In this document: positions 11,206 to 52,830 of the stretch, in pieces
Position numbering within the stretch: the first letter of the stretch is position 1
Layout of the letters: every line of letters starts with the position of its first letter
NCBI GenBank assembly: GCA_029863625.1
Contig: JAOTUY010000001.1
Span: 82,046-146,045 of the forward strand
Length of the DNA stretch: 64,000 bases
Origin: Acidimicrobiia bacterium
GTDB taxonomy: Bacteria > Actinomycetota > Acidimicrobiia > Spongiisociales > UBA4744
Direction: 5' to 3'
The notes under the pieces: model-generated
The model's input: only the letters and a program-made list of their open reading frames with translations
What the model was told of the DNA's origin: nothing
Database searches by the model: none
Translations under genes and position numbers: made by a program

Positions 11206-12639
11206 ATGGTGCCACTGGTTGCCGGAATCGATTGCTCGACACAGTCGACGAAAGCCTTGATCGTTGATGTCGACTCGGGTGAAGCAGTTGCGATCGGGAG
11301 AGCAAACCACGAAGTCACCGGGACGGGCGGAGCGCGGGAGTCGGACCCCGAAGGCTGGTGGACCGCTCTACGCGATGCGATCGGGCAGACGGGCCGGGGA
11401 GCTGAACTGGCCGCGATTTCCATTGCCGGGCAACAACACGGAATGGTGGTCCTGGATGGCGATGGAAAACCGCTTCGGGCGGCCAAGCTGTGGAACGACA
11501 CAGAGTCAGCCGCAGATGCGGCGACTTTGATTGATGCTCTGGGGGGATCCAACTGGTGGGCCGAGCGGGTCGGTCTCGTGCCCGTCGCCTCGTTTACGGC
11601 AGCCAAATGGGCCTGGTTGCGGCGGATGGAACCTGACGTAGCCACGGCTACGGCCGCCATTCGTCTACCTCACGATTTCCTGACCGAACGGCTGTGCGGA
11701 CGCGGGGTTTCCGACCGAGGGGATACGTCGGGGACCGGGTGGTGGTCGACGGCAACGGAGGCATACGTCGACGAGGTCCTGGACCACCCTTCCATTCGTC
11801 TCGACCCCGCCCTCCTTCCGGTCGTGCTCGGTCCGCGGGAAGTGGCCGGAAACGTCACCAGCGAAGCGGCCGACTTCGTTGGTATTCCGGCCCGTATTCC
11901 GGTCGGTCCCGGCACGGGTGATAATGCCGGCGCGGCCATCGGCCTCGGTTTGGAGCCGGGTGTGCCGGTCATCAGCCTGGGGACCTCGGGGACCGCTTTC
12001 ATGGTTTCCGAATCGCGCAGCGCGGATCCTTCCGGGACGGTGGCCGGGTTTGCCGACGCCACCGGGCGTTTCCTCCCGTTGGCGGCAACGCTCAACTGCA
12101 CTCTGGCGGTGGATCGGGTGGCATCCTGGCTCGGGCTCGAGCGTGACGACGTGGTCGCACCCACCGAGGTAGTGGTTCTGCCGTTTTTCGATGGGGAGCG
12201 GACGCCGAATCTCCCCGATGCCGCGGCTTCCATTATCGGGCTGCGGCATACGACCCTGCCCGGTGAGATCTTGCTCGGTGCTTATCAGGGTGCGGTCCTC
12301 AGTCTGCTCGATGCCCTCGACGTGATCGATCGTTGCAGCTCCGGAATCGGGGTCGACGCGCCCCTGGTTCTGGTCGGCGGAGGATCGAAAGGTTCCACCT
12401 GGCGGAGCGTCATTCAGGCGATGTCCGGTCGAGCGATCCAGATTCCCGAGGCAGAGGAACTCGCGGCTCTTGGAGCAGCTGCCCAAGCGGCCTCGATGCT
12501 CGGTGGAGAGCACCCCGACGCGGTGGCGAGGCGATGGGGAACCCGCCGGGGTACCGTTCTTGAGCCGGTGTCGAGAGATGAGCAAACGCGCAACCGAATT
12601 CACCGGGTGCGCGAACTGACCACGGAGCTGAACGGGTAG
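11206..12639 (+). CDS. xylB: FGGY-family carbohydrate kinase (xylulokinase-like)
   Basis: N-terminal VAGIDCSTQSTKALIVD, ISIAGQQHGMVVLD, FGGY C-domain GGGSKGSTWRSVIQ. 477 aa. Confidence 0.75.
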   Translation: MVPLVAGIDCSTQSTKALIVDVDSGEAVAIGRANHEVTGTGGARESDPEGWWTALRDAIGQTGRGAELAAISIAGQQHGMVVLDGDGKPLRAAKLWNDTESAADAATLIDALGGSNWWAERVGLVPVASFTAAKWAWLRRMEPDVATATAAIRLPHDFLTERLCGRGVSDRGDTSGTGWWSTATEAYVDEVLDHPSIRLDPALLPVVLGPREVAGNVTSEAADFVGIPARIPVGPGTGDNAGAAIGLGLEPGVPVISLGTSGTAFMVSESRSADPSGTVAGFADATGRFLPLAATLNCTLAVDRVASWLGLERDDVVAPTEVVVLPFFDGERTPNLPDAAASIIGLRHTTLPGEILLGAYQGAVLSLLDALDVIDRCSSGIGVDAPLVLVGGGSKGSTWRSVIQAMSGRAIQIPEAEELAALGAAAQAASMLGGEHPDAVARRWGTRRGTVLEPVSRDEQTRNRIHRVRELTTELNG

Positions 12640-12642
12640 GAA

Positions 12643-12745
12643 CTCGCTTCGCTCCCAGCGTCCAGCTTCCAGCCCGCTTCGCTCCCAGCTTCGAGCACCC
12701 GGCCAGAACGGTGCTGGGCCAAGTTGCTGGTTGCTGGTTGCTATC
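12643..12745. repeat. Copy A of a roughly 100-bp intergenic repeat (GCTTCGCTCCCAGC ... CCGCCAGAAC-GTG ... GCTGGTTGCTGGT)
   Basis: Shares the ordered blocks gcttcgctcccagc, cagcttcgagc, cc(g/c)gccagaac(g/a)gtg and gctggttgctggt(t/c)gct with 31548..31645. Lies between convergent xylB and the Gfo gene. Confidence 0.6.
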
Positions 12746-13730
12746 CCTTCGCCGCTTCCAGTATTCGCTCGATGACCCGCATATTGGCCACCCCGTCCTC
12801 CGGGGGAGTGGGTACGGGCGCATCGTCGAGGATGGATTGAGCGAAGAGCTCTGCTTGAACGGTGTACTGATTGATCGGCGGGAACGTGATCGTGACGGTA
12901 TCCGGGCCGGCTGTCGGGTTTTCCGCCTGTGTGAGGAAGATCCGGGTCTCACGATCCGGCGGAGGGTTGAAGGGGATTTCGACCTCGATCCGCCCGGTCG
13001 ATCCCAGCAGATGAACCGCCTGGTCTGGCTCTGTCTGGGTGGAGACGACGAAGCTCGCCTGGCCTCCACCGAAGTCGAGAAGGGCGGAAGTGACGATATC
13101 GGTCCCGAAGTCCGGGTCCCTGAGGACAGAGGCTTGGACGCGAGTCGGCTCACTTCCAAACAACATACGAGACAGATTGATGGCATAGCAACCGATGTCC
13201 ATGAGTGCGCCCCCACCCGTGTCCATCCGGTTGCGAATGTTGTCCCGATCGTTGTTGAAATAGGCAAACCGGGTCTGGACGGAGCGCAGCTCACCGATGA
13301 CACCTGAGGACACCATCTCGAGGACTTTGGCCCATAATGGGTGGAGCCGGTACATGAAGGCCTCCATCAGCTGCACCCCTTCCGCTGCACAAACATCGAC
13401 CATTTCTTGCGCATCAGCCGAGCTGAGCGCAAAGGGCTTCTCGCACAGAACGTGCTTGCCGGCCCGGCCGGCGGCGATCGACCACTCGCGGTGGAGGTGA
13501 TTGGGGAGCGGGTTGTAGATGGCATCGATGTCACCGTCGGCGAGGAGCTCCTCATAGCTTCCGTACGTTCGTGGGATCCTCAGTCGGTCGGCAGCTGCGC
13601 GACCTCGAGAGAGATCACGCGAGGCGATGGCGATCACTTCGCAGTTGGAAGCGTCTTGTATCGCCGGTATTACCTGCTCGGTGCCAATGGCGGCGGTGCT
13701 GAGGATGCCCCAGCGCACTGTGTCAGTCAT
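12741..13730 (-). CDS. Gfo/Idh/MocA-family NAD(P)-dependent oxidoreductase
   Basis: N-terminal Rossmann VRWGILSTAAIG, and the family-typical LCEKP motif. Confidence 0.8.
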   Translation of the reverse strand: MTDTVRWGILSTAAIGTEQVIPAIQDASNCEVIAIASRDLSRGRAAADRLRIPRTYGSYEELLADGDIDAIYNPLPNHLHREWSIAAGRAGKHVLCEKPFALSSADAQEMVDVCAAEGVQLMEAFMYRLHPLWAKVLEMVSSGVIGELRSVQTRFAYFNNDRDNIRNRMDTGGGALMDIGCYAINLSRMLFGSEPTRVQASVLRDPDFGTDIVTSALLDFGGGQASFVVSTQTEPDQAVHLLGSTGRIEVEIPFNPPPDRETRIFLTQAENPTAGPDTVTITFPPINQYTVQAELFAQSILDDAPVPTPPEDGVANMRVIERILEAAKG

Positions 13731-31057: not shown

Positions 31058-31543
31058 GTGCCCGCTGCGTCGACGACCGCATCCACCGCGTCTTCGACCA
31101 CTGCGACGGCGATGACGACCACCGCAGCTCGCGTTGTCGAGGGTTTACCCGGGTTCGAAACGGTCGAGGTAATTCTGGAAGGCGAATCGCTGCTCGTCGC
31201 CCTCGCCGATACACGGGACCTGCGGACTCAGGGCCTCATGGGCGTAACCGATCTGGGAGGTCTCGATGGCATGGTGTTCGTGTTCCCCGACCCGTCGGTC
31301 CACACGTTCTGGATGAAGGACACGCTCATCCCGCTTGACCTCGCCTTCTTCGCGACCGACGGATCCTTGTTGGGCGTGCTGACGCTGGAACCCTGCCCAT
31401 CGGGCGCGTGCCCCTCATACGGCGTCGGCGAGCCCTCGCAATGGGCCATCGAGGTCCCGGCCGGCGGTTTCGCCGATCTTCCCTTGGATGCGACGCTCGA
31501 TGTCGGCCGGGACCCGTTTCTCGCCCTGTTCTCAGAGAGTTAG
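31058..31543 (+). CDS. DUF192-family protein; likely a lipoprotein whose true start lies upstream in a non-ATG codon
   Basis: DUF192 core ...LIPLDLAFF...WAIEVPAGG. In the same frame upstream, RRLVLALVLVTAAC forms a lipoprotein signal preceded by AAGGAGG and an ACG codon. Confidence 0.6.
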   Translation: MPAASTTASTASSTTATAMTTTAARVVEGLPGFETVEVILEGESLLVALADTRDLRTQGLMGVTDLGGLDGMVFVFPDPSVHTFWMKDTLIPLDLAFFATDGSLLGVLTLEPCPSGACPSYGVGEPSQWAIEVPAGGFADLPLDATLDVGRDPFLALFSES

Positions 31544-31547
31544 GCAA

Positions 31548-31645
31548 TAGCTTCCAGCTTCGAGCCTTCCCAGCTTCCGGCAGCTGGATGGCTTCGCTCC
31601 CAGCATCCCGCCAGAACAGTGGTTCGCTGGTTGCTGGTCGCTGCT
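31548..31645. repeat. Copy B of the roughly 100-bp intergenic repeat
   Basis: Same ordered blocks as 12643..12745. Lies between the DUF192 gene and rpsF. Confidence 0.6.
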
Positions 31646-31799
31646 CCGCGAAAACTCCCTTGCTACTGGGGTTCCGCTACCTGCCTATCGTTGGTTACAC
31701 TTCCAACGCTTCCCCGGGTAACCAATGCTTACCCGAGCCTGCTCCGCCAGACGGCGGGGCCTTCCGCATCGAGCGGTTGTCCATAGGAGGAGGTTGCCT

Positions 31800-32090
31800 T
31801 TGCGCAACTATGAGCTGATGACCATCCATCGGCCTGAATTGGCCGATGACGACTACCGAACGCTGGTGCGCGAGACGGAGGAGTTCCTCCGGAGCCGTGG
31901 TTCCTCCGTTCTTGATACCGACCTCTGGGGCAAACGCCGCTTTGCCTATGAGATCAAACATCTCAACGAGGGCTACTACTCAGTACTCAAGTTCTCGGCC
32001 GAACCAGACGTGGTCGATGACCTGGACCGGGTGCTATCGCTGGCCGATCTGGTGATTCGACACAAGATCTTTCACCTCGACAAGACATGA
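31800..32090 (+). CDS. rpsF: 30S ribosomal protein S6
   Basis: LRNYELMTIHRPE aligns with E. coli MRHYEIVFMVHPD. TTG start with AGGAGG 9 nt upstream. Confidence 0.85.
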   Translation: MRNYELMTIHRPELADDDYRTLVRETEEFLRSRGSSVLDTDLWGKRRFAYEIKHLNEGYYSVLKFSAEPDVVDDLDRVLSLADLVIRHKIFHLDKT

Positions 32091-51285: not shown

Positions 51286-52167
51286 GTGGTGGCCATGTTG
51301 GTGGCCGCCCAATCATCGTTGACCTCGAGCGCTGTTGGTTGGCCGGTGGTGTTTGCTTCGCTGTCTCTGGTAATCCTTGCTCTGGCGCTGGCGTTGGTGC
51401 TGGGTCTGCGCATCGAACGTGAGGTGATCGTCGCCACGCTACGGGCCGCAACGCAGCTTCTGGCAGTTGGCTTCGTGTTTGCCCTCATCTTCAATTCGAC
51501 CGCCGCTCAATACTGGGCCTGGTTCTGGGTTGGTGGCATGGTCGTCGTCGCAACGGCGGTAGTAATCCGACGAGCGAAATACCGGATCGACCACCTCGCT
51601 CTGGTCGCGGGAAGTGCGGTGCTGGGATCGGCGTTGATCAGTATCGCCGTTACCTTCGGGTTCGGGGTGATCGACTATGGCCCCGTTTCACTGGTGGTCA
51701 TCGCTGGGATCACCATCGGCAACGCGGTGCCGTCGGCCGTTCTGGGCGTCAACCTGTCGGTCGATTCGTGCCGGGACCGGATCGGCGACCTCGAAGCACT
51801 CTTATCCCTCGGCCTGGATCGGCAACAAGTCGTGCGATATCTGGCACCGCGCAACGCCAGGATGTCGCTGATACCCCAAATCGAACGTACCAAGGTTGTC
51901 GGCCTGATCGCCTTGCCGGGAGCGATGACCGGCCTTCTCCTCGCCGGAGTTGACCCGGTTGAGGCTGTGGTGATCCAGCTCTTGGTGATGTACCTCGTAT
52001 TGGGAACCGCCGCCGTGTGTGTGGTCGCAGTCGTCACCGCCATCACCCGGGCGGCGGTGACGAGCGATCTCCTTATCGCCGAATGGGTCTACCCGGAGAC
52101 ACCCGTTCCACCGGTAGGAAGAGAATCAGGAAAGGAGAAACGGGCTACGAGAGGGATGGCTCGATGA
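51286..52167 (+). CDS. UPF0014 (FetB/YbbM-like) putative ABC-type permease, no partner ATPase nearby
   Basis: Roughly 7 TM, 293 aa. Family assignment from memory of the FetB pattern. Confidence 0.5.
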   Translation: MVAMLVAAQSSLTSSAVGWPVVFASLSLVILALALALVLGLRIEREVIVATLRAATQLLAVGFVFALIFNSTAAQYWAWFWVGGMVVVATAVVIRRAKYRIDHLALVAGSAVLGSALISIAVTFGFGVIDYGPVSLVVIAGITIGNAVPSAVLGVNLSVDSCRDRIGDLEALLSLGLDRQQVVRYLAPRNARMSLIPQIERTKVVGLIALPGAMTGLLLAGVDPVEAVVIQLLVMYLVLGTAAVCVVAVVTAITRAAVTSDLLIAEWVYPETPVPPVGRESGKEKRATRGMAR

Positions 52168-52266
52168 AGCGCCGATTGGGACGTTAGAGGGTCAACGGCG
52201 TTCCCGACCGCAGCGAGGCCTCGCGCAAGATCCGAGAACTGAGAACCAAGAACTGAGAACGCTCTT

Positions 52267-52830
52267 TCACACAAAGTCCTGACGCACGCGGCTCGGAGTT
52301 GGTCCGCGCTGGCCCTGGTATTTACTCCCGGCCTCATCACTCCCGTATGGGTGGTCGGCCGGCGTCGTGAGCTGATAGAAAGAGATCTGACCGATCTTCA
52401 TCCCCGGGTAGATAGCGATCGGCAGGTTGGCAACATTCGACAGCTCCAGGGTCAAGTACCCGTCGAAACCAGGATCGACGAAACCGGCGGTCGAGTGGAT
52501 CAGAAGGCCGATGCGGCCCAGGCTGGATTTTCCCTCCAAGCGGGCGACGACGTCCTCGCCGAGTTGCACTCGTTCGAGCGTTGATCCGAGTACAAACTCG
52601 CCGGGATGCAGGATGAAGGGGTCTTCTTCGCCGACCTCGACCAAGGTCGTCAAGTCTTCCTGCGACGCCTTCGGATCGATGTAGGGATAAAGGTGGTTTT
52701 CAAACACCCGAAAGAAGCGATCGACCCGCAAGTCGATGCTGGACGGCTGAACAAACGATACGTCGTAGGGATCGATGACGATACGACCGGCTGCGATCGC
52801 TTCTTTGATGGTCCGGTCGGACAGGATCAT
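52267..52830 (-). CDS. dcd: dCTP deaminase
   Basis: [34 protein letters not shown]. Confidence 0.85.

Follow-up and report, generated by a model that had tools for sequence, protein, structure and literature searches.

Our analysis of a 64,000-nucleotide window of Acidimicrobiia DNA reveals that two intergenic elements, copy A (12640–12745) and copy B (31544–31643), both on the forward strand, belong to an interspersed repeat family of uncultured Acidimicrobiia and related Actinomycetota that has apparently not been described so far and for which we count more than 25 additional copies, in Acidimicrobiia/Actinomycetota MAGs and in metagenomes. Members of the family share one architecture, lie in the sense orientation just past gene ends, differ in repeat number between strains, and have arms that change in a compensatory manner between lineages. 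The family and its anatomy are well supported, and from them we infer a function: we consider it about evenly balanced whether the element is a REP-like/STRR-like hairpin at the ends of transcription units, turning over by heptad slippage. The finding is real and under-described, but it lies within a known general kind of element.

Copy A fills the gap between two convergent genes, an xylB-like gene for an FGGY-family sugar kinase (11206–12639, + strand; Pfam FGGY_N/FGGY_C), the TAG stop codon of which is 6 nt ahead of the first core of copy A, and a Gfo/Idh/MocA oxidoreductase gene (12741–13730, − strand). Its C-rich left arm (12646–12698) comprises two GCTTCGCTCCCAGC cores (12646–12659 and 12676–12689) and CCAGC-type heptad units, and differs from the family consensus by one additional degenerate unit (CGAGCAC) and by the duplication of the core. 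The apex (12699–12722) reads CCGGCCAGAACGGTGCTGGGCCAA and includes the family CCAGAAC motif, and the right arm (12723–12742) is (GTTGCTG)×2.9 by TRF, its end overlapping the stop codon of the convergent gene (CTA at 12741–12743). Copy B is located between the stop codon of a DUF192 gene (31112–31543, + strand, TAG stop; start adopted from a 143-aa database protein) and the rpsF promoter/leader block (31644–31799, + strand), which is outside the element and bounds its 3′ side; the 3′ boundary of copy B is the start of this block as conserved in relatives. The left arm of copy B (31549–31606) comprises degenerate AGCTTCC heptads, which make up its outer part, and one GCTTCGCTCCCAGC core (31591–31604); its apex (31607–31625) reads CCCGCCAGAACAGTGGTTC, and its right arm (31620–31643) is (TGGTTGC)×3.3 by TRF.

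The rpsF gene starts with TTG at 31800. The approximately 160-nt block just upstream of it is nearly invariant in five Acidimicrobiia genomes and adjoins a hypervariable 5′ stretch. In the consensus fold of the block, CTCCCTT near the 5′ end pairs with the AGGAGGAGG Shine-Dalgarno sequence, and the block has no match in Rfam, even at E up to 10. It is a candidate leader for autoregulation of the rpsF-ssb-rpsR-rplI operon.

The resemblance between copies A and B is far above chance. An exact GCTTCGCTCCCAGC occurs at 12646, 12676, and 31591 and at no other site in the window, CCSGCCAGAACRGTG occurs at 12699 and 31607, GCTGGTTGCTGGTYGCT at 12726 and 31626, and CAGCTTCGAGC at 12686 and 31555. The first-pass annotation had described these as blocks recurring in the same order; all are present and three of the four are collinear, but CAGCTTCGAGC, which is just one of the repeated CAGCTTC units, follows the core in copy A and precedes it in copy B. 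The same annotation had described the element as built from degenerate short units and a mini-tandem. The sequences are as described, and TRF detects arrays of period 7 in each arm of each copy (12651–12673, 12723–12742, 31549–31578, and 31620–31643). The Smith-Waterman score of copy A against copy B is 44, as compared with a maximum of 32 over 2309 other tiles of the window and a maximum of 33 over 2000 dinucleotide shuffles (z = 8.9). Only copies A and B are present within the window, as judged by blastn-short and by a covariance model.

To find relatives, we performed two scans. The first, of one genome per species with a pattern demanding parts of both arms, yielded six true relatives, of which four come from contigs of a single MAG, Ww201. 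The second, of metagenome contigs with a pattern drawn from the left arm only, yielded 49 loci, approximately 21 with the whole architecture and the remainder chance matches inside two conserved genes; the heptad right arm is present in all of the approximately 21 loci, although the pattern had not demanded one. A covariance model (R1) of 14 copies from other genomes, with the window copies excluded, matches copy A at 12652–12751 (53.5 bits, E 2.4e-10) and copy B at 31567–31651 (55.4 bits, E 8.9e-11), and recovers four additional copies in the fetched loci that no pattern had picked. Canonical copies score about 100 bits with the same model, as compared with 53–55 bits for copies A and B, indicating that the window copies are diverged members. 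Copy A recurs without a single base change in five other assemblies of the same population. This is an uncultured Acidimicrobiia population, for which GCA_029864135.1, ENA assemblies, and JGI sediment metagenomes contain identical proteins. An intergenic repeat family, as proposed in the first pass, is therefore real by virtue of the more than 25 copies in other contigs. The proposal had been made contingent on there being more than two copies and on the similarity extending beyond low-complexity CAGC/GCTG runs; many copies exist elsewhere, and the shared part includes the non-repetitive GCTTCGCT core and the CCAGAAC apex. Rfam 15 gives no gathering-score match for the window and 16 family loci (noise only at E up to 10), and a literature search for the signature sequence strings of the family gives no match.

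Two wider distributions were considered and rejected. One copy (L008, CAVONJ010000012.1) comes from a MAG with the label Planctomycetota; the adjacent HNH endonuclease gene has its best named relatives in Acidimicrobiia (80–82% identity), so the contig is probably mis-binned, and we dropped a claim of cross-phylum spread. A scan of viral contigs gave two matches, one in coding sequence and the other (L072, IMGVR_UViG_3300042197_004928) a related but different heptad array: at 2230–2680, GCTTCGCT and then (CCCAGCT)n stand in the intergenic spacers that separate small phage genes, and a complementary stretch rich in GGGAGC lies upstream. We rejected a viral origin.

The family consensus, roughly 85–115 nt in length, comprises a stop codon, a C-rich left arm of the form (NNCCAGC)2-ACC-GCTTCGCTCCCAGC-NN-CCAGCCAGAAC, an apex of roughly 11–18 nt that often reads GGTGKTAAGCC, and a right arm (GCTGGTT)n, with n ranging from 2 to more than 10 (up to 10.3 copies by TRF). 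Specifically, the left arm consists of CCAGC-type heptads that are interrupted by the GCTTCGCT core and end in CCAGCCAGAAC, and it is C-rich and G-poor (20 C and 8 G in 46 nt); the right-arm unit is uniform inside a copy and varies among copies (GGTTGCT, GGTCGCT, GGTGGCT, GATTGCT, GCTTGCT, and CACTGCT). The RNAalifold consensus is a long hairpin in which four 5-bp CCAGC/GCUGG helices are spaced by 2×2 U/U loops (2-nt mismatches) and the left arm carries an asymmetric bulge, ACCGCUUC. The RNA folding check suggested in the first pass gives a split result: canonical copies fold well beyond shuffles (z −2.4 to −5.2), but copies A and B fold no better than shuffles (z about −1). In the canonical set, the paired columns are invariant and the linker dinucleotides vary freely; since the paired columns never vary, there is no covariation within this set, and covariation is seen only between lineage-specific variants. 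One copy (L034) keeps the left module without a right arm, and two (L041 and L028) have right arms that are poorly complementary, which hints that left-arm sequence, and not only the hairpin, matters.

Other heptad arrays are present in the same contigs. A second heptad element beside the canonical copy in L048 (545–625) combines left units of the CAAGC type with (CTGATGA)3 and retains the AAGCCAGAACG apex, and beside the canonical copy in L009 (5830–5945) are three consecutive direct arrays, (TTGCAGG)5, (CATCAAG)4, and (CTGATAG)3, with no clear hairpin. The window itself contains another period-7 array, (GAGAACT)×3.9 at 52234–52260, in the gap between two convergent putative ORFs (51286–52167, + strand, and 52267–52830, − strand); it does not resemble the family, and a complementary arm is not obvious.

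The position of the element is strict. With genes called by a simple GC3-based method, the left arm starts −7 to +23 nt from the stop codon of a co-oriented gene in 18/18 callable cases. Convergent gene pairs are uninformative about orientation, because either orientation of the element yields a co-oriented upstream gene, and the orientation test is therefore confined to co-directional pairs, at which (at least seven) all copies are in the sense orientation. The downstream gene lies anywhere from 3 to more than 1000 nt away: in four cases (L011b, L048b, L037, and L052a) the element is 3–40 nt upstream of the next co-directional gene, and in three (copy A, L013, and L017) it occupies the entire gap between convergent genes. 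Several copies (L020, L048, L054, and L064) are located directly after small hairpins. We rejected a link to TAG stop codons, considered with readthrough or a target site in mind: TAG precedes 8/17 elements, as compared with 37% of stops in the contigs (p 0.27).

Two copies follow non-coding features, namely the canonical hairpin-plus-U terminator of an unannotated structured RNA (L064) and a tRNA-like fragment (L045), indicating that the association is with 3′ ends of transcription units rather than with translation termination. The L064 region (2293–1500, minus strand) comprises two tandem units of approximately 370 nt, each a dense series of GCTTCGG/CCTTCGG tetraloop hairpins, followed by the canonical hairpin-plus-U terminator and then by a family element; the units have no Rfam match and may be a duplicated structured RNA gene that is unannotated. 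At L045 (2500–2540), a tRNA-like 3′ fragment (GGAGTTCGAATCCCACCCCCGGGCAC) precedes the element, and no complete tRNA gene accompanies it. ARAGORN finds no tRNA there, and we rejected adjacency to a tRNA; the fragment may be a remnant attachment site.

Orthologous sites reveal rapid change. We compared the xylB/GFO and DUF192/rpsF sites with those of four related genomes each (66–85% protein identity). At the xylB/GFO site, where the window element is of the CCAGC/GCTGG type, one relative (L073, 85%) has a clearly homologous element that begins CTCGCTTCGCTCGCAG and has arms (CCAGTTN)6 and (ACTGGCT)8, forming a six-segment periodic hairpin of the CCAGT/ACTGG type (z −3.8); a second relative (L075) has (CAGCTAT)3 and (GCTGACC)3, of the TCAGC/GCTGA type; a third (L074) has heptad arrays with no evident hairpin; and the fourth (L076) has no heptads. 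At the DUF192/rpsF site, the approximately 160 nt beside rpsF are almost invariant, and the stretch past the DUF192 stop codon is hypervariable: one relative (L078) has (TCAGTTA)n, a retained GCTTCGCT core, further units, and (GGCTGAT)3, with TCAGT/GCTGA pairing and an R1 match of 35 bits; another (L079) has (TCGTCAG)2 that pairs with CGACGACTGA, of the TCGTCAG/CTGACGA type; and two (L077 and L080) have decayed remnants. The pairing per heptad is 5 Watson-Crick pairs and 2 mismatches in the canonical form, L073, and L075, 5 Watson-Crick pairs and 2 G-U pairs in L078, and 7/7 in L079, such that several variants retain a pattern of five paired and two unpaired positions. Both arms have changed together (C-G to U-A) in every unit, which is evidence of selection on pairing.

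None of the eight orthologous loci is a clean empty site (five, L073, L074, L075, L078, and L079, have recognisable heptad variants), and the element therefore appears to evolve in place. A variant is common to both sites of a given genome, the TCAG type at L075 and L078, which are on one contig, and the CCAGC type at both window sites, indicating homogenisation within genomes. Unit number varies between strains: L029 has 10 units and L033 has 7 in flanks that are 99% identical, and L017 differs from L047 in flanks that are 96% identical. Such variation, with a unit that stays uniform within a copy, is what slippage leaves behind. The left module is under tighter constraint, being 95% identical between L037 and L053, as compared with 74–78% in their flanks, and identical at 33/34 positions between L008 and L034, as compared with 72–75% in their flanks. 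The L037 and L053 loci are orthologous in the element and in the gene downstream of it; in L037 a further gene of 273 aa (no search match) separates the upstream gene from the element, and homology resumes exactly at the left edge of the element (GCAGCCACCAGC).

The best-supported mechanism is a hairpin at the RNA 3′ end: the position just past gene ends suggests that the element marks or protects the mRNA 3′ end. Specifically, the element would be transcribed as the 3′ end of the upstream mRNA, and its two arms would form a long hairpin in which 2-nt mismatches separate 5-bp helices, and this hairpin would define or protect the RNA 3′ end by blocking 3′-to-5′ exonucleases. The hairpin perhaps also aids factor-dependent termination, in a GC-rich lineage without U-tract terminators at these sites; more speculatively, the C-rich, G-poor left arm would suit the loading of Rho. 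The arms would turn over fast by heptad slippage and become homogenised within the genome, and selection would maintain their complementarity. In E. coli, REP/BIME hairpins act as 3′ hairpins that stabilise the upstream mRNA. Against such a role, if the L064 terminator is efficient, the element behind it would seldom be transcribed; the lack of a U-tract or canonical terminator at copies A and B, their folding no better than shuffles, the absence of covariation in the canonical set, and a folding energy that does not favour the sense strand also weigh against it.

In working terms the element most resembles REP/BIME, and the closest described kind is the heptameric intergenic repeat. Like enterobacterial REP/BIME and REPIN-RAYT sequences, members of the family are imperfect palindromes interspersed outside genes, at gene 3′ ends and within operons; like REPIN doublets, they are hairpins of roughly 100 nt; and like REP, they have a genome-specific family sequence and a proposed 3′ hairpin function, which for REP has been shown. 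The REP-like label given in the first pass is thus apt in the broad sense, but not in the defining features of REPINs. The arms differ in kind, one being a module with a GCTTCGCT bulge and the other a plain heptad array, instead of being inverted 20–40-nt REPs; there is no conserved GTAG-like 5′ tetranucleotide, and left-edge sequences vary; and the right arm is a variable-number heptad array in an element that is strictly sense, whereas BIMEs alternate. REPIN (RAYT-associated) systems have a cognate RAYT (Y1 transposase) gene in the genome; in the fragments of host genomes covered here, no such gene has been identified. Like MIRU, the family consists of actinobacterial intergenic variable-number repeats that are oriented with the flanking genes and close to stop codons; unlike the family, MIRU are direct repeats of 46–101 bp, with small ORFs overlapping the flanking genes and without hairpin or heptads.

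Several features argue for more than a plain hairpin: sequence conservation extends to the GCTTCGCT core and the CCAGAAC apex, L034 retains its left module with no partner arm, and some copies lie after a genuine terminator or only a few nucleotides ahead of the following gene. It is conceivable, though on balance unlikely, that the element acts in cis as the partner of a dedicated protein supplied in trans, which could be an RNA-binding protein or a single-strand DNA transposase/recombinase. Such a protein would read the asymmetric hairpin through the GCUUCGCU bulge, the CCAGAAC internal loop, and the UGKUA-like apex, and co-evolution of repeat and protein would account for the uniformity of variants inside each genome and their divergence from one genome to another. 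If so, Acidimicrobiia would have a previously unrecognised REP/RAYT-like or RNA–protein system.

An unlikely reading is that the family is a functionless by-product, with heptanucleotide repeats expanding by polymerase slippage and the family reflecting shared descent plus slippage. Many bacteria, Actinobacteria included, have heptamers as their commonest long simple-sequence repeats, according to Mrazek 2007 as summarised in PMC4679880, and this background prevalence favours a neutral origin, as do the period-7 arrays of many different units in these contigs, the polymorphism of repeat number among strains, and the fast change at an orthologous site beside a nearly invariant rpsF leader. Heptameric intergenic repeats are known as GGGAATC in Xanthomonas, GGGGA(C/T)T in Nostoc/Anabaena, STRR in Calothrix, and TAACTGA in Beggiatoaceae (PMC4692102; PMC4679880), and those of Xanthomonas and Nostoc are located 0–50 bp past stop codons, with a sense-strand preference, variable length, and unknown function (PMC4692102; PMC4679880). 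The family is like these in having tandem 7-nt units in intergenic positions in many copies per genome (PMC4692102; PMC4679880). Some heptameric repeats also occur as inverted pairs. The repeats vary in length and sequence between close relatives and are not linked to IS elements; the STRR-like features of a 7-nt period, a location near the stop codon of the upstream gene, and a unit number that varies between close strains are all present in the family. The family differs in that the heptad array is only half of the element, the other half being a conserved non-repetitive 5′ module, in that its arms are complementary and form a periodic hairpin, and in that its host is Acidimicrobiia; a quadruplex is not expected, because the units are not G-tracts. 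Neutral expansion does not account for a left module conserved above neighbouring coding sequence, for compensatory change that keeps the arms complementary, for strict placement in the sense orientation 0–25 nt past the stop codon, or for an identical non-repetitive core and apex at unrelated loci.

It is doubtful that the element is a non-autonomous mobile element, MITE-like or REP/RAYT-like, copied by a transposase in trans and targeted just past gene ends or terminator hairpins. Near-identical left modules in multiple copies at unrelated loci are consistent with mobility, as are the genome-specific variants common to two sites (L075 and L078; both window sites), the copies just past small hairpins, and the asymmetric GCTTCGCT bulge, a type of feature recognised by single-strand transposases or integrases. 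Like MITEs and ERIC/Correia-type elements, which are transcribed with neighbouring genes, members of the family are non-coding imperfect palindromes of about 100 bp; unlike them, they have no terminal inverted repeats, target-site duplication, or, at the loci examined, filled/empty polymorphism. In particular, defined terminal inverted repeats are lacking, since the element ends on the right in an array whose length varies, and its left edge varies too; no target-site duplication is visible, apparent flank matches being inverted and extending the hairpin; no conserved GTAG-type tetranucleotide is present; and an unsystematic look revealed no transposase beside any copy. At the eight orthologous loci, no site is clean and empty, five having heptad variants, two remnants (L077 and L080), and one no heptads (L076), such that the element looks old. 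The MITE-like label proposed in the first pass is accordingly not supported. We also considered an integron attC site, in view of the sense position past stop codons and the AAC/GTT motifs; R′′/R′ boxes are not at the element ends, and inspection, which revealed that the flanking genes are housekeeping genes, ruled it out.

A self-sufficient intrinsic terminator, bidirectional between convergent genes, is improbable. The element is like an intrinsic terminator in having a stable GC-rich hairpin directly past the gene, in filling the entire convergent gap in copy A, L013, and L017, and in having a GG-UU that ends each right-arm unit, but it is unlike one in having no U-tract 3′ of the stem. Specifically, a terminator scan revealed a hairpin followed by a U-tract at neither window copy, the right arm giving just UU per unit, and a promoter scan revealed no sigma-70-like promoter at either. 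Mycobacterial RNA polymerase requires a U-tract at intrinsic terminators. Moreover, copies 3–40 nt before co-directional genes leave no room for a promoter, and a strong terminator there would silence the downstream gene; and the L064 copy is behind a canonical terminator. The conserved terminator module proposed in the first pass hence agrees with the element in position and not in anatomy.

We regard as very improbable a site that acts at the DNA level, as a binding array for a nucleoid-associated or recombination protein or as a cruciform-forming element. The periodic GCTGG units do resemble arrays of protein-binding sites, L034 has the left module alone, and folding energy has no strand preference, the sense strand not being favoured (14/27 copies, p 0.23), for which reason we abandoned the assignment of strand by folding energy; but the sense bias relative to transcription is unexpected for a double-stranded DNA site, and the compensatory arm changes point to intrastrand pairing. 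Finally, that copies A and B are merely two low-complexity CAGC/GCTG stretches can be dismissed almost entirely, since, although short repeats make up part of both, their mutual score exceeds that of all 2309 window tiles (z = 8.9) and the independent family model matches both (E about 1e-10).

Acidimicrobiia are abundant in marine, sediment, and soil communities and are rarely cultured, and to our knowledge almost nothing is known about how their transcripts end. A 3′-end element that can be searched for with a model could help to annotate operon boundaries in Acidimicrobiia MAGs, and its variable repeat number could serve as a strain-typing marker. The element offers a natural system in which to examine how slippage and selection on pairing jointly maintain a hairpin. 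It extends the little-understood class of heptameric intergenic repeats to a new phylum, in a hairpin form that makes a testable prediction.
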